A DNA stretch of 64,000 nucleotides from an uncultured Candidatus Saccharibacteria bacterium (GCA_964631275.1 CAZVWQ010000002.1:26206-90205); one strand, 5' to 3'; shown: positions 1,480-7,577, counted from the stretch's first letter. The notes: generated from the sequence alone by a model not told the origin. Translations and numbers: made by a program.

Positions 1480-2346
1480 ATGTACAATCCTCGAGGAGTC
1501 GAATTAGCACAAATGCTCAAAGGTGGAGTTATTATGGATGTCTCTAACCCTGAACAAGCCAAAATTGCCGAAAAGGCAGGGGCTGTAGCAGTTATGGCCT
1601 TAGAAAGAATCCCTTCAGAAATTCGTAAACAAGGAGGTGTAGCCAGGATGAGCAATCCTAAGATGATTAAAGAAATCAAAAATTCTGTAAGTATTCCTGT
1701 AATGGCTAAATGCCGTATCGGACACATCACTGAAGCTCAAATTTTGGAAGCAGTGGCCATTGATTTTGTTGACGAATCTGAAGTTTTGACTCCAGCAGAC
1801 GAGATTAACCATCTAGATAAGACTAAGTTTCAGATACCTTTTGTTTGTGGCTGTCGTAATCTTGGAGAAGCTATCCGTCGAATTTCCGAAGGAGCTAGTA
1901 TGATCCGCACCAAAGGTGAAGCTGGTACAGGTAACATTGTTGAAGCTGTAAAACATCAGAGACAGATCCGTAACGAAATTAAAAAAGTAACTTTACTTAA
2001 CTATGAAGAATTGGTTGTTTATTCTAAAGAAATTGGAGTTTCGATAGAAATTTTAGTCAAAATTAAAGAGCTAGGCAAATTACCAGTAGTTAATTTTGCT
2101 GCCGGTGGAATTGCTACCCCTGCTGATGCCGCTCTAATGATGGCCCTAGGTAGTGATGGAGTTTTTGTTGGGTCTGGTATATTTAATTCTAGTGATCCAG
2201 CCAAAATGGCTAAAGCTATTGTTCAGGCTACAACTTTTTGGGATGATCCAATGCGATTAGCTGAACTCAGTGAAGATATTGGAGAACCTATGTCAGGATT
2301 AGAGATCGATACTCTAGAAACTAAGATGGCGGGGAGGGGAGGGTAG
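1480..2346 (+). CDS. pdxS: pyridoxal 5'-phosphate synthase subunit PdxS
   Basis: [38 protein letters not shown] and the remaining sequence are collinear with PdxS. 288 aa. Confidence 0.95.
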
Positions 2347-2348
2347 TT

Positions 2349-2525
2349 ATATCCAAACTCGTACCAATTTTTATTTTAGATTATAGAATATTTTTTATAC
2401 GTTAACCAATTCAAATTAGGACTTTTTTAATTTTTAACAATAATTTTTGATATTAATTAGATCAAACTAAAACCGAAATTTAAACTTCTAAAAAACTAAA
2501 ACTTGCTTTGCGGTAAGTTATATAC
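2349..2525. repeat. dispersed repeat family D (composite; ..ccaaactcgtaccaattttt.. plus ..gatcaaactaaaaccgaaatttaaacttc..ttgctttgcggt..)
   Basis: Sub-modules recur at 13266-13384, 51284-51455 and 53082-53147, and inverted at 11971-12058, 14860-14930 and 49176-49258. Confidence 0.6.
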
Positions 2526-2674
2526 TAGTTATATGCAACTTTAATAATTATCTTTTAGCGCCCAACAATTAGCTTTTTTAAGGGTTAATTTTGCATAAAA
2601 GCTTGCATAATTTAATACGAAAATGAGTTTAACGGCCATAATTAATTCACTTTCAAAATTTATATTTTTTATCT

Positions 2675-2787
2675 TATACCAATCCGTTTACTATTGCCCA
2701 AAATTTTACTCTTCATAAGTAAATAAATTTTTTATTAAACTAAATTCTTAACAGGTAATTACTGTAACGATTAGCCCAAAGAGTATA
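2675..2787 (+). repeat. repeat family A (about 113 bp, ends TATACC..GTATA, core GGTAATTAC)
   Basis: Aligns along its length with 6257-6369 and, inverted, with 11015-11118, 24495-24608 and 63774-63898. Confidence 0.75.
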
Positions 2788-2908
2788 AGACAATACTATT
2801 GACTAAAATTTTAACTAACAATAGAGTCAAGTAGACTGTTTTTTAAGTTTTGTAGTTTTGTAATAACTTATAAATACAAAAATCTTTAATAAATTTTAAT
2901 TACCAAGG

Positions 2909-3841
2909 ATGCTCAATCAGACTTACGATCCCAAAAAATACGAATCAGAAATATACAATAACTGGCAATCTCAGAGTTTAGGTAAGATTGAAATCCAAGA
3001 TGAAACTCAATTAAAATATATAATTTTTGATTTTGATGGGGTTTTGGCTGATAGTTATGAGGCTGAAATATACGCACTACAAAAAACAGGTAAATTTAGT
3101 GAAATAGATTCGGTTAAAGAATATCTTCAAGAAAAATTTCTTAACCCATCTGTAAAAAATTTTGATGACGTTGAAGAAGTGGCAGTAGAAACGCAAAAAA
3201 TCAGAAAAATCTGTCAGTATAAATTAGAATATGGATTTCATCTTTTTATGGGCTTTATTTATGAACTCAAAAAGCTTAAAAATTTTAGATTTGCTATCAA
3301 TACAACTGCTGACCACTCAAATGTAGACCATCTTTTAGCTGATATTGATCTGAGTTTTGATAACATTCAAACATTAGAAGAAAGCCTAAGTAAAAATCAA
3401 AAAAATAAAGTTATAATCAAAGATTGGAATCTATCTAGTAATCAGAATGTTTATTTTATTACCGATACTGTCAGAGATTATTTAGAAGTTAAAGAAACTA
3501 TAAAAGAGCAAAACATCTTAGCTGTTGATTGGGGCTGGCAAGGTTATCAAACCTTGATTAAATATATGCCAGAAAAGCAAATCCTCAAAAACTATCAAGA
3601 TATTCATAGAATTTTTCCAAGGCATTCAATCTTAATGCCACCGCCAAATTTAACTGGTAAAATGCACGCTGGGCATTCTTTTCAGCATTTTTTGATGGAT
3701 ACACTATCACGAATTAATAGACAAAAAGGTAATCCTAGTCTCTGGTATCCAGGAGTTGATCATGCTGGCATCCAGTTAGAAGGTGTTATCGATAAGTTAA
3801 TTAGAAAAGGTGAATTTGATGAAGAATTAAAAAATAAATAG
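2909..3841 (+). pseudogene. valS: valyl-tRNA synthetase N-terminal fragment with an in-frame HAD-like insert; truncated about 70 aa after the HIGH motif
   Basis: YDPKKYESEIYNNWQ opens as ValRS does. PPPNLTGKMHAGH..WYPGVDHAGI is the HIGH region. FDFDGVLADS..AINTTAD..ITDTVRD between them is HAD-like. TAG at 3839 is followed by multiple stops. Confidence 0.7.
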
Positions 3842-4273
3842 ACTGCTGTTTAAAAGATAGATGGTTTAGCTTAAGCCCAAATCCTGTAATTTTTATAATA
3901 TGGCTATGGCAAATTCGTGGTTTAAAGTTTGTTTACTTATTTTTAGATAAAAAGTAGTCAAAATTAGCTTATTTTGAGATACAATTAATAAACGATTGGT
4001 CCAAAAGATAAAAAAATAATTAAAAATATCTAAAATTAGTTTTTAAGTTTGAATTAAGTTGTAAAAAATTAAAATGGTTGTTATAATTCATTTATAGATA
4101 GTCCTTATAAAGATTTTCGAAACTTCTTATAGTATAAAGTATTTTACCAAATTTTAGCTAAGCTATACAGCTATAATTTTATTTTCAAACAAAACTTATA
4201 GTAGGTCTAAAATCTCTAACTTATGCTTAGATGCCTATTAATAAACAAATAAGTTTTAATTTATTTTTGTAAA

Positions 4274-5598
4274 ATGAATTTTGAATATCCAGTTAGTCCT
4301 GATAGTAAGCATAATCCTGACATAACTGAAAAAATTAGGAGTCTGCTAAATGCAATTTTTACAGATCATCCAAGTTTTGAAGAGTTAAGTTTTGAAGAGT
4401 TAAAAGAATTAAAAGAATTAATTACTAGACTACGATCAAAATTATTAGAAGTTATTAAAGAATTTGCAATAAGTGAAAGTAATCAAGGTTTTATCTTTAT
4501 CGATAATAATGATAATGATAATACATTCTCTATTAATCCTGATAGGTATGCTAGCATACCAAATGATAAAAATTCTAAATTTCAATACAGGGGTTGCCAG
4601 ATTTATTTTGGGGAAAAAATTCAAGATTAAATGCTTGTGTAGACAATGAATTATTAGATAAGCTTAAAAATGGGGAAAGAATTGAATTTGCTAACCTAGG
4701 CCCAATTTCAAAAATATTTATTTTGCAGTATGTTTTTAGTTTAATTTTAGAATTAGCATCTGAAAAACTAGACTTGGAAAATGCTATAAATTTTTATGAG
4801 TTTCTTTTAAATCTTAAAGAGAGTGATAATGATAATGATAATGATAATAGTTTTAATCTTTTAGAAGGTTTTAAATTATCTGATTTAAGACCTCCCTATC
4901 TATATCATATAAAACAAAAATATTCTGATAAAATGATTCCTTTTGTTGCAAGGGTTGTTGGATTTAACCTTAGTAGGCTTGAAATTCCTCATCTACCTTT
5001 TGCTGTTGTATCTTTAAATTTTAAATCATCATTGGAGATTACTACTATGACTTCTCGTGAAGTTGATCCTAACTTTGCTTTTGAAGGACCTGACTTTATA
5101 ATCCTTATTTCAGGAAAAAAGACAGATGAAGGGTATAAAGCTTTTTTATATAAAAAAGATAGTAGTAATAATAATTATAAATTTACTAAAGTTAATGAAG
5201 GCTACTTATATCTAACTGAAGCCCTTTACCTCTGTTACGATAACGAACTTATTAGTAAACTTAATAGCGACATTCAAGATTCGCTTACTATAGATAGTAT
5301 TAAAACTCTTTTAAGAAGAATATTTGACGAAGATAATAATACTAGAATTCCTAACGCTTTACTACTTCATAGAGCAATAACACTGAGGTTTCCTCCTTTT
5401 ATGAAAATATTAGAAGAAGCAAGAGATGAGCTACCTGTAGAAAGCCATGGGTGGGAACCTAAACCTCCAAGTCATTTATTTGAAAAGTTTATTATTCCTA
5501 TTATTATTGCACTTGTGTTTTATATTTTTTTTTACTTTTCTTCTAGAGAAGAAGTCCCCTCTTTACAAGAACCTCCAACTAACACACAAACACAATAA
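4274..5598 (+). pseudogene. hypothetical protein with a C-terminal TM helix; two overlapping ORFs consistent with one gene frameshifted at a G-run near 4590
   Basis: ORFs 4274-4630 and 4594-5598 overlap. Both contain DNDNDN tracts. GGGG at 4590-4593 lies in the overlap. FIIPIIIALVFYIFFYF is near the C-terminus. Confidence 0.4.
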
Positions 5599-5867
5599 AA
5601 ATAATATTTGCATGTTTATACTGAGTTTAGCTTTGACTTTTATTTATATTTAGAAAACCTATTTGATTGCTTGTCTTTTAAAACAAAGATTTTTAGTTGT
5701 TAGATATTAAATCAGCTTGTTTTTAAGGAATTTGAGAATACCTAAAATGTCTAAATTGTGCATAGATTAAGTATATTTTTGATTTTCGTATTCAAAATCA
5801 ACTACCAACGATTTCTTAATTTTTTACTTTTAAACTGCTAAAAATTTCAAACATGTCTATAGTCTAT

Positions 5868-6179
5868 TTATTCAAAAATAGAGCTAGAAGAATTTTGGAT
5901 AGCCTCTAAAGATTTAGATTCACTCTTAGGTAAGGATTGTTGAAATCGGGTCTCTAGATTTATATTTTTAGGTAGCTCTTTTGCTCTAATATTTATTTCT
6001 GGTTCAGAATATTCAGGAGAAAAAGGCCCAAAAACAGACATGGCCCCAAAAACAGCAAGGAATAATATTGTTACAAGCATAGTAACTACAGATAAGATAG
6101 TTCTAAAATCAGTTTTTCTTTTTTCTGGTTGTTTTTGCATTTGCTGAAGTGGTTGTATTTGTATTTGTTGTTGTGACAT
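5868..6179 (-). CDS. small single-pass membrane protein (hypothetical)
   Basis: ORF with a Q-rich N-terminus and the TM helix ILSVVTMLVTILFLAVFGAMSVF. Confidence 0.45.
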   Translation of the reverse strand: MSQQQIQIQPLQQMQKQPEKRKTDFRTILSVVTMLVTILFLAVFGAMSVFGPFSPEYSEPEINIRAKELPKNINLETRFQQSLPKSESKSLEAIQNSSSSIFE

Positions 6180-6435: not shown

Positions 6436-7410
6436 TTAAATTTCTGTATTCTCCAAATACACCTCTTTATCAGTACCTGGATTCCAACCAAGAAAAACTA
6501 AATAATTAAGGATAGCTTCTGGTAAAAATCCTTCATCTAAATAGCTCTGCATATCTACATTACCATCTCTTTTGGATAATTTTTTGTTCCCAGTTTCACC
6601 TAAAATAAAAGGTAAATGAATATAAGCAGGAACTTGACCCCAATAGTCAAAAAACATAGCTGTGTGCCTAGCAATACTTGGATACCACTCTTGAGCTCTA
6701 ATTACCAAAGTAGTTTTCATTAAGTAATCATCAACTAGATGTGCCAAGTGATAGGTTGGATATCCATCAGACTTTAGAATTGTGAAATCTTCTTCTAGGT
6801 TAAGATCAAATTTGGTCTTGCCAAGTAACTCGTCCTTGCACTCAATAGTTTTATCCCTTTGTAGCTTGTATTTGAGTACTGGTTTGGATTGATCTTTCAG
6901 ACCATCTTTTAGACTTTGAGTTAGTTTTTGTTGGTTAAATCTTTCTTGGCAAATTTTATAATAATTAATTGCTTTTTTGTTGATTTTTTTAATTTCTAAT
7001 AATTCTTGTTTATCTTCTTCGGTTAGATAACTCCAGTAAGCTAAACCCTTATCAAGCAAATTTTGAGCATGTTCGTGATATATATCTAATCTTTTGGATT
7101 GAATGTAAGGCCCAAAGTCTCCTTTTTCGTAGATATCATAAAATTCATCATAAACTCCACCCTGTGAATCATCAGAAATAGGATCAAGTAAAGTAATACC
7201 TTCTTTGGGTAATAAATGTAGCTGATCTAGAGTTTCTAGAAGCTTACGAGCTGAGTCACTTTGCAAACGGTTGCGATCTGTATCTTCTAGCCTGAGATAC
7301 CACTGACCTTGATTTTTGTTAGCAAATAAAGCTGTAAAGAGTATTTGTCGAGTTGTACCTAAATGCAAGTATCCAGTAGGTGAGGGTGCCTGCCTAGTTC
7401 TAAAAGTCAT
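6436..7410 (-). CDS. gltX: glutamyl-tRNA synthetase catalytic core, lacking the anticodon-binding domain (truncated)
   Basis: APSPTGYLHLG (HIGH-like), LRLEDTDRNR, KLSKR (KMSKS) and GFLPEAILNYLVFLGWNPG. TAA follows 14 aa later. Start chosen at ATG 7410; the ORF track starts at TTG 7446. Confidence 0.8.
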   Translation of the reverse strand: MTFRTRQAPSPTGYLHLGTTRQILFTALFANKNQGQWYLRLEDTDRNRLQSDSARKLLETLDQLHLLPKEGITLLDPISDDSQGGVYDEFYDIYEKGDFGPYIQSKRLDIYHEHAQNLLDKGLAYWSYLTEEDKQELLEIKKINKKAINYYKICQERFNQQKLTQSLKDGLKDQSKPVLKYKLQRDKTIECKDELLGKTKFDLNLEEDFTILKSDGYPTYHLAHLVDDYLMKTTLVIRAQEWYPSIARHTAMFFDYWGQVPAYIHLPFILGETGNKKLSKRDGNVDMQSYLDEGFLPEAILNYLVFLGWNPGTDKEVYLENTEI

Positions 7411-7577
7411 ACTCACAAAGTTTTTTTGATTAAATAATTTAGTCAAGAATATTTTTAGACCATGATGTAATTCTTATAACTTTATAAATTTTTCATAAGC
7501 TTACTTGACTAGATTTGTTTTTGTTACAAGTTGTGTTTACTAGATTTAATTTCGACTAGTGAGTCAGTTTTATCGGT

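Follow-up and report, generated by a model that had tools for sequence, protein, structure and literature searches.

A ValRS probably encoded by three dispersed genes, with a putative HAD phosphatase aboard its head piece, in a patescibacterial genome

Aminoacyl-tRNA synthetases (aaRS) are textbook single-chain or homo-oligomeric enzymes, and naturally split forms are rare cases that are used in arguments on the evolutionary assembly of multidomain enzymes. A split AlaRS is among the split genes of the Nanoarchaeota. In Aeromonas phage Aeh1 a free-standing homing-endonuclease gene is inserted into nrdA, and the two separately translated halves form an active enzyme. Both natural split aaRS and domain inserts in aaRS are already known. 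The LeuRS of Aquifex aeolicus is an active alpha-beta heterodimer, as stated in PMC2377443, which cites Xu et al. 2002 on this point. In Nanoarchaeum equitans, the genes for RNA polymerase subunit B, reverse gyrase and archaeosine tRNA-guanine transglycosylase are split (PMC3491384). For SR1, one sentence in Kantor et al. 2013 mentions fragmented copies of ValRS and AlaRS together with an IleRS that Nudix and phosphoglycerate-mutase domains interrupt (PMC3812714). Apart from that sentence, a literature search returned no paper that deals with split ValRS or with inserts of HAD, Nudix or Ham1 in the aaRS of Patescibacteria, and no analysis of a three-piece ValRS, of the break point termed split A below, or of the HAD module described here.

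The DNA under study is a window of 64,000 nucleotides (G000:C2:26206-90205) from contig C2 of genome G000, whose assembly comprises 1.48 Mb in 53 contigs, has about 30% GC and is about 86% complete. Judging from comparisons of sequence, positions 2909-3841 of this window are probably the intact head-subunit gene of a naturally split, three-gene ValRS with a passenger HAD phosphatase aboard. An essential class I synthetase would then reside in three dispersed genes, with one cut in the catalytic fold, and this state would be inherited and selected across a lineage. Such an enzyme would (i) be a natural test case of how little covalent continuity a class I active site needs, and (ii) supply split points usable for protein engineering.

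Like the Aquifex LeuRS, this is a bacterial class Ia synthetase made from separate genes, whose association into an active enzyme is predicted here. It differs in having three pieces rather than two, in the position of the cuts (right after the HIGH helix and strand 2 within the Rossmann fold, and before the anticodon domain) and in the foreign enzyme domains that the pieces carry. As in Nanoarchaeum equitans and other Nanoarchaeota (PMC3491384, PMC3655853), a tiny-genome, probably host-dependent organism has several essential genes in dispersed pieces; the Nanoarchaeota, however, are archaea, different genes are split in them, and embedded hydrolase modules are not reported there. SR1 belongs to the same broad group (Patescibacteria, Gracilibacteria/SR1 side), but its fragmented valS was described as an extra copy whereas the pieces in G000 are the only valS found, and the SR1 paper contains no analysis of the HAD module or of the break points, their conservation or selection (PMC3812714). 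Two relatives treated below, L035 and G025, are like the Aeh1 nrdA in that they represent colinear intermediates of foreign-gene insertion into an essential gene; unlike in the phage, the intervening genes are not recognisable endonucleases (they are of DUF3137, HAD, Nudix, Ham1 and toxin-antitoxin types) and the G000 pieces are dispersed. The embedded module shares its fold and all four catalytic motifs with the C1-capped HAD-IA phosphatases of COG0546 (2ah5 SP0104, 3mc1; phosphoglycolate-phosphatase-like), and differs from them in its identity of about 20%, its own C-terminal tail (QILKxYxDIHxxF) and its life inside other proteins.

The open reading frame at 2909-3841 lies on the plus strand, starts with ATG, stops with TAG at 3839-3841 and encodes 310 aa. 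The features of the locus are as follows, with nucleotide positions counted in the window and aa positions in the 310-aa product.

2347..2908, no strand: upstream spacer that separates pdxS from the valS head piece, mostly dispersed short repeats
2909..3841, plus strand: valS head piece (N piece), probable subunit 1 of a three-piece ValRS, 310 aa (Pfam/NCBIfam, homologues P0002-P0007)
2909..3010, plus strand: ValRS N-terminal helix and host linker, aa 1-34, ...YDPKKYESEIYNNWQ...LGKIEIQDETQ, aligning with the N-termini of G007 and G008
3011..3616, plus strand: in-frame module, predicted HAD-IA phosphatase, aa ~35-236 (Pfam HAD_2, TIGR01549, AlphaFold, Foldseek)
3026-3040, plus strand: HAD motif I, D41/D43 (D41-F-D43-G-V), from the sequence
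3296-3313, plus strand: HAD motif II, NTT at aa 132-134, from the sequence
3386-3403, plus strand: HAD motif III, K162, from the sequence
3458-3478, plus strand: HAD motif IV, TDTVRD at aa 185-190, from the sequence
3578-3616, plus strand: module-specific tail QILKNYQDIHRIF, from the sequence
3617..3838, plus strand: start of the ValRS Rossmann fold, aa 237-310, with the tail ...GEFDEELKNK (Pfam PF00133 positions 22-88)
3638-3649, plus strand: strand 1, PPPN, aa 244-247, as a sequence string
3665-3676, plus strand: HIGH helix, HAGH, aa 253-256, as a sequence string within the PF00133 match
3752-3772, plus strand: strand 2, GVDHAGI, aa 282-288, followed by one more helix, as a sequence string
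3839..3841, plus strand: TAG stop, here called split A, at a place where unsplit ValRS has a loop (from aligning the joined pieces to the G007 enzyme)
3842..4273, no strand: non-coding spacer past the head piece, with few short weak repeat fragments (blastn against the genome)

The initial annotation had taken this frame for a piece of valS that opens as ValRS does, and this is borne out: YDPKKYESEIYNNWQ is found at aa 6-20, the Pfam family tRNA-synt_1 (PF00133) matches aa 236-302 at profile positions 22-88 of 414 (E 3.6e-17), and the NCBIfam valS equivalog NF004349 matches at positions 29-93 only. Its remark that translation stops soon after HIGH, and that stops and repeats follow, agrees with a closed frame whose stop lies 54 aa past HIGH and 74 aa past the end of the insert, and with short weak repeat copies at 3842-4273. 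Recoding of the TAG at 3839 was ruled out by eye; several stops follow in all frames, and the downstream sequence has no ValRS homology. The repeats of the upstream spacer occur in many copies at 70-89% identity on most of the contigs with about 30% GC, including C33 (blastn against the genome). The ATG at 2909 is preceded by an A/T-rich context without a Shine-Dalgarno sequence, like that of ordinary genes in the window, and Shine-Dalgarno sequences are generally absent from the genes of G000. Promoter-like sites were fewer in a scan of the locus than in shuffles.

The window ORF itself contains no KMSKS, CP1, anticodon-binding domain or coiled coil, and these sit in two further genes of the same genome:

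G000:C33:3633-6152, strand not given: piece M, 839 aa (PF00133 profile positions 98-403)
G000:C4:20367-21161, minus strand: piece C, 264 aa (PF08264, anticodon-binding, and PF10458, Val_tRNA-synt_C, the coiled-coil arm)

Piece M begins with MSLYSELENIPRNDWPQYLKK, exactly where the window ORF stops, and ends with ...NIARFLESKE. It contains what remains of the catalytic fold, together with the CP1 editing domain (TVRPET, GTGALKITPASD) and KMSKS at aa 770, and is itself interrupted, between DTWFSS...LWPL and FYPTQ, by an alpha/beta-hydrolase of ~228 aa with GHSLGG, D and H. The description of the window ORF as a fragment from which some 570 aa are missing was correct in that the frame ends early, and has to be amended in that the remainder exists as two intact genes on C33 and C4, which were recovered when the rest of the genome was searched for the remaining part of valS; the search revealed no contiguous valS or intact paralogue. 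More specifically, a whole-genome search with PF00133 recovered the window piece, the C33 ORF, an IleRS (C12), a LeuRS piece (C37) and a MetRS (C14), and no other valS in the about 86% complete assembly; a search with PF08264 recovered the ORF on C4, which stands alone. With this degree of completeness, a second intact valS could in principle lie in the unassembled part of G000, but the nearest sampled genus (G008) and other relatives, which likewise show pieces only in a search of related genomes, speak against it.

Along the 860 positions of the NCBIfam valS model, piece N covers positions 29-93, piece M starts from 105 (best stretch 105-460, with a second stretch beyond) and piece C covers 588-854. 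The scores of N, M and C against NF004349 are 79, 390 and 120 bits, and their sum of 589 stays below the cut-off of 704, which no piece reaches alone; these are scores of separate chains with large inserts, which tile positions 29-854. When concatenated without their inserts (975 aa), the pieces are colinear from end to end with the contiguous 985-aa ValRS of G007, which represents another genus of the same family, at 54.5% identity. Compared with this enzyme, both junctions are short variable loops, HIGH and KMSKS are intact, and there is no gap or overlap. Within the 86%-complete assembly, the separate genes jointly cover one synthetase by these alignments, with no intact copy beside them.

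The reading of 2909-3841 as the head of a three-subunit ValRS would assign the parts as follows. Piece N would give the N-terminal helix and, with HIGH in it, the opening strand-helix-strand of the Rossmann fold, piece M the remaining catalytic fold, the CP1 editing domain and KMSKS, and piece C the anticodon-binding domain plus the coiled-coil arm for the tRNA. All three would be transcribed and translated separately, and we infer that the chains join non-covalently into one active enzyme, so that the active site would be built from N and M together. By analogy with the alpha-beta LeuRS of Aquifex aeolicus, such non-covalent assembly is the most likely way in which this ValRS works; its unusual trait would be an interface that passes through the catalytic fold. 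The HAD module would fold as an independent domain that stands outside the aminoacylation mechanism. As for the history of the locus, valS and other housekeeping genes of this Patescibacteria lineage would repeatedly have taken in, at permissive loops, genes for small hydrolases (HAD, Nudix, Ham1, serine hydrolase) and other genes; where the incoming DNA was read through, an inserted domain would result, and where it brought a stop and a new start, a gene in pieces, with later rearrangements dispersing the pieces.

The same architecture is found in relatives. In G008, valS consists of three pieces with the same ends as in G000. Its head piece of 118 aa lacks the HAD module, and the G000 head piece is 82% identical to it over aa 233-309 and 68% identical over the whole 118-aa piece. 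The middle piece (858 aa) carries the same hydrolase insert as piece M of G000, and the tail piece (272 aa) lies 3.3 kb downstream of it and is followed by nrdR; the two are separated by an unknown gene, a toxin-antitoxin pair of the PIN type and a further small gene. A search of 5.8 billion proteins yielded six more head pieces with both HAD and HIGH (P0002-P0007; 304-334 aa, 41-61% identical), at least three of which occur on several independent contigs. Split A marks, to within a few residues, the end of all seven head pieces that bear the HAD and also of the G008 head piece. In L035, the head piece, one gene for a DUF3137 membrane protein, a ValRS remainder of 1096 aa and nrdR stand in a row, and this is a colinear, gene-in-pieces intermediate state. 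The ORFs at 4274-4630 and 4594-5598 of the window were considered as a splitting cassette and rejected, as they have no Pfam or PADLOC match and do not resemble the DUF3137 gene of L035.

In a set of 40 related genomes searched with the insert-free 975-aa ValRS query, the enzyme is contiguous outside the order, at 720-970 aa. Within the family, contiguous forms also occur in G007 and G016 (about 1000 aa) and, with inserts, in G002, G006, G009, G015 and G020 (1200-1300 aa). The break before the anticodon domain, here called split B, is present in about 14 of the 25 family genomes, including the single-contig assembly G017, and a split near core position 400 occurs in G003, G005, G011 and G025. 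Split A, after the HIGH region, is found in G000 and G008 in the genome set and, outside of it, in L035 and the other head pieces. It does not follow a domain boundary but cuts within the Rossmann fold, a circumstance that counts against the three-subunit explanation: a small and marginally stable head fragment, to which AlphaFold gives low confidence by itself, would have to associate tightly. G025, from a different family in the same order, has three colinear valS pieces. Between its second and third pieces lie (i) an intact free-standing HAD gene of 204 aa, of the same module type including the characteristic tail, (ii) a truncated HAD copy, (iii) a 241-aa HAD-like ORF ending in a Nudix box and (iv) a Ham1-like gene.

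A tree of the M core with nine taxa groups G000 with L035 and P0035, all of which bear HAD. The split states differ within this group, with both A and B in G000, A only in L035, and B only in P0035, which could be a partial protein. Because of these differences, fission or re-fusion at the same valS junctions probably happened more than once. A recurrence of splits (or of their healing) at identical junctions is odd in itself, and has to be counted against the explanation by three subunits.

The insert in the head piece had been proposed to be a HAD-like domain placed in frame ahead of HIGH, with three sequence motifs as its marks, and the profile search of the insert confirms that it is a HAD-superfamily domain. 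All of the motifs are present (FDFDG at aa 40-44, INTTAD at 130-135, ITDTVRD at 184-190), and two models match above their curated cut-offs, namely Pfam HAD_2 at aa 38-191 (E 7.5e-9; 36.4 bits against a cut-off of 23.8) and NCBIfam HAD-SF-IA-v1 (TIGR01549; 25.5 bits against 23.3). The motifs are conserved across P0002-P0005 and P0007. Among embedded and free copies of the module, the catalytic Asp/Asp, Ser/Thr, Lys and Asp/Asp are kept in 49/50 and 83/83, respectively, with the exception of the second Asp of motif I (48/50 and 82/83). AlphaFold, run with an alignment of 18 sequences, gives a pLDDT of 90 or more over aa ~41-230 and of 44-65 over the flanking synthetase segments, a low value that is expected of an incomplete Rossmann fold which would need piece M. 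The best Foldseek match of the model is 2ah5 (E 3.6e-8; TM 0.68 normalised to the target). The nearest solved structures, 2ah5 and 3mc1, are uncharacterised, C1-capped HAD phosphatases of the COG0546 type. Profiles and model agree on a HAD of subfamily IA, with a predicted Rossmannoid core and a helical C1 cap. Most likely the module is an active phosphatase for small molecules that the synthetase carries along. Its partners, Ham1 and Nudix, make it a reasonable guess that the module may serve as a nucleotidase in the sanitation of the nucleotide pool or in salvage.

An HMMER scan of 1.84 billion representatives found only 345 relatives of this HAD subfamily at E<=1e-3. In about 40% of the best matches the module is internal to long proteins, the rest being free proteins of ~205 aa. 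According to Pfam, the host proteins comprise ValRS, with the module at several sites, LeuRS, a synthetase of class II (Asp/Lys/Asn type), the GTPase Der and CTP synthase. A protein with the HAD often contains Nudix, Ham1, serine-hydrolase or HD modules as well, and P0048 is a bare Ham1-Nudix-HAD fusion. G000 itself contains the HAD module again in its LeuRS tail piece and in Der. The N-terminal loop of valS is empty in G007 and G008, and is occupied in P0008-P0010 and P0021 by Ham1, with or without Nudix. The HAD module is inserted into a surface linker that leads from the N-terminal helix to strand 1 of the Rossmann fold. The insert is not bracketed by repeats, hairpins or target-site duplications beyond AT-rich chance matches, nor is it marked by a transposase or recombinase, and its mechanism of insertion is conjecture because such marks of mobility are absent. 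An embedded phosphatase that is common to LeuRS, Der and CTP synthase and has its motifs intact in nearly every copy suggests an unexplored way in which minimal genomes may house, or be colonised by, small metabolic enzymes.

One may go further and regard the HAD, Nudix, Ham1 and serine-hydrolase modules as a previously unrecognised class of translated gene cassettes of this Patescibacteria lineage, a proposal that is possible, if doubtful. The cassettes would shuttle, without splicing, between a free-standing state and the permissive surface loops of essential genes (aaRS genes, der and pyrG), and would directly cause the domain insertions as well as the fission that valS, leuS and gltX have repeatedly undergone at identical junctions. 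They would persist because their imprecise loss kills the host gene. If this were true, the Ham1-Nudix-HAD fusion P0048 would suggest that the cassettes jointly make up a nucleotide-sanitising or salvage pathway that moves as cargo.

Alternatively, the HAD could be an integral working part of the synthetase, which might clear a phosphorylated by-product or inhibitor at the active site, or replace a missing pyrophosphatase and thereby pull the reaction. Enzymes of the aaRS class produce PPi, AMP and Ap4A. Embedded copies strictly retain their catalytic motifs, nucleotides or phosphate esters are the targets of every kind of module that occurs in aaRS loops (HAD, Nudix, Ham1), and the Foldseek matches include 3qu9 and 3qut, that is BT2127, a pyrophosphatase of the HAD fold. 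Nevertheless, such a role is unlikely, since the head piece of G008 and the contiguous enzyme of G007 have no HAD at this site, the same module occurs at many positions, in Der and CTP synthase or free-standing, and its place here is an N-terminal surface linker. As a stand-in for a lost inorganic pyrophosphatase the HAD was rejected: the genome encodes a family I enzyme (PF00719, 176 bits) on C48.

The three ValRS genes might instead be dead remnants, i.e. a decaying pseudogene broken by insertions and rearrangements, in an organism that uses another ValRS, either unassembled or supplied by the host. In favour of this are the many repeats and the rearranged state of the genome, its completeness of only about 86%, stop codons in several HAD copies of relatives, and the probable host-dependence of the organisms. 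Such decay would, however, have to be reconciled with three full-length frames that are open and in which HIGH, KMSKS and the motifs of the editing domain are intact, with piece ends conserved across genera and on many independent metagenomic contigs, with the pieces being the only valS seen in G000 or G008, and with the presence of split B in a single-contig assembly (G017). It also conflicts with the substitution pattern. By Nei-Gojobori counts, pS is saturated throughout (0.65-0.80), and pN is far below it: 0.14-0.20 for the core of the head piece, 0.31-0.43 for the HAD module (pS 0.65-0.75), 0.25 for piece M and 0.26 for the hydrolase insert within it, and 0.35 for piece C. On these counts every valS part is under purifying selection, and decay is a very improbable explanation.

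Another concern is that a contiguous valS was cut at repeats during assembly, or that contigs from different organisms were binned together. The flanks are repeat-rich and a few foreign, high-GC contigs are present in the bin, but this reading has largely been refuted already and is hardly credible. An independent Logan assembly (run SRR7048223) reproduces the sequence of window positions 2671-5966 over 3.3 kb, with 0 mismatches and one 6-nt indel, and contains the identical ORF, and the join across 3800-4300 is therefore not the peculiarity of one assembler. All valS breaks lie deep inside long contigs, with proper stops and starts in place and non-homologous genes on both sides; the pieces complement each other exactly, without overlap; C2, C33 and C4 agree in GC content and contain the same dispersed repeat families; and at least seven other lineages share the architecture and the end point of the head piece.

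Rejoining of separately made protein parts is known from the split DnaE intein of cyanobacteria. That the ValRS pieces are rejoined into a single chain, by split inteins or by trans-splicing introns such as exist for split genes, e.g. the tRNA halves of Nanoarchaeum (PMC3491384), is scarcely tenable, given that no Rfam intron family matches at E<=1 in window 2300-4700 (where no other RNA family was matched either) or around the M and C pieces (where Rfam reports only a tmRNA gene near M and nothing near C), that Pfam scans of the pieces contain no intein or Hint domain, that the ends ...EELKNK (stop) / MSLYSE... consist of ordinary loop residues with homologous counterparts in the unsplit enzyme and lack intein junction residues, and that the HAD junctions (...ETQ / LKY... 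and ...RIF / PRH...) have no Cys/Ser, His-Asn signature.

If 2909-3841 is indeed the head gene of a three-subunit enzyme, its consequences for annotation are practical ones, as annotation and completeness pipelines will label such genes as fragments or pseudogenes, or miss them. The valS gene has a parallel in its own vicinity. No simple model of a single inversion or excision fits the orientations of the valS and gltX neighbourhoods, and such an event was rejected as their origin. In the same window gltX is also split, and the head pieces of valS and gltX adjoin on one contig, just as their tail pieces adjoin on another.

The valS gene lies in three pieces in the source genome and also in G025, a genome of another family within the same order, where the pieces are colinear at locus L028:

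G025:C25:27500-37500, minus strand, three valS pieces of 402, 207 and 436 aa

Genes for secreted or membrane proteins separate pieces 1 and 2 at this locus, and the gap between pieces 2 and 3 holds tightly packed genes only a few nucleotides apart: two HAD genes, of which one is intact and the other truncated, together with HAD-like/Nudix and Ham1-like genes. Modules of these types also exist as a free protein, the metagenomic P0048, in the order Ham1-Nudix-HAD.

The HAD module (the HAD-IA phosphatase-like domain inside the valS head piece) has further hosts, one of them a Der/EngA GTPase of the source genome:

G000:C1:147600-149885, plus strand, Der/EngA GTPase with HAD-like segments, 761 aa

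Three HAD-like segments flank and separate its GTPase domains without breaking the reading frame, and its metagenomic relatives P0036, P0040 and P0043 have the same kind of arrangement. Two other metagenomic proteins are hosts as well: in P0071, a CTP synthase, the HAD module separates the synthase domain from the glutaminase domain, and in P0056 a class II synthetase of the Asp/Lys/Asn type precedes a HAD and an HD domain. In the source genome, leuS consists of at least three pieces, including:

G000:C14:31069-31683, plus strand, stand-alone leuS editing-domain ORF, 204 aa, adjoining metG
G000:C37:3565-6003, plus strand, leuS tail piece, 812 aa

The tail piece opens with a serine-hydrolase domain (33% identity to the ValRS insert, the alpha/beta-hydrolase of the valS middle piece), and its HAD module sits after KMSKS and ahead of the anticodon-binding domain. 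No N-terminal catalytic piece of leuS was found in this assembly. The gltX gene is likewise split, its two parts lying on separate contigs (C2, in the window, and C4):

window 6436-7446, minus strand, gltX catalytic-domain piece, 336 aa, covering PF00749 positions 3-286 only
G000:C4:17107-18336, minus strand, gltX anticodon-binding half, 409 aa

On C2 the valS and gltX head pieces are separated by 2.6 kb, and on C4 the tail pieces of these two genes by 2 kb. A single rearrangement was considered as the source of these paired neighbourhoods, and no such explanation was found.

Downstream of the valS head piece there is an overlapping pair of ORFs:

window 4274-4630, plus strand, ORF, 118 aa
window 4594-5598, plus strand, ORF, 334 aa

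Both contain DNDNDN runs, neither has a match in Pfam or PADLOC, and they might be a single frameshifted gene. An independent assembly (a Logan contig from run SRR7048223) differs from window 2671-5966 by one 6-nt indel, which probably falls inside the first ORF, because this has 116 rather than 118 aa there.

On C33, the valS middle piece is preceded, at a distance of approximately 345 nt, by a tmRNA gene:

L002 609-1084 (G000:C33:2813-3288), plus strand, tmRNA gene, 58 bits

At 476 nt against a model of 374 positions, it therefore holds extra sequence. Since tmRNA genes are classical integration sites, the nearby middle piece may itself lie within an inserted segment.

Genome-wide, the short contigs C30, C34, C40, C46, C47, C49 and C50 have a GC content of 49-60%, compared with ~30% elsewhere, and are probably binning contaminants. 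Ahead of gene starts in the window (e.g. 1480, 2909, 7800, 26331) the sequence is A/T-rich and lacks Shine-Dalgarno motifs, a context common to ordinary genes and every valS piece.
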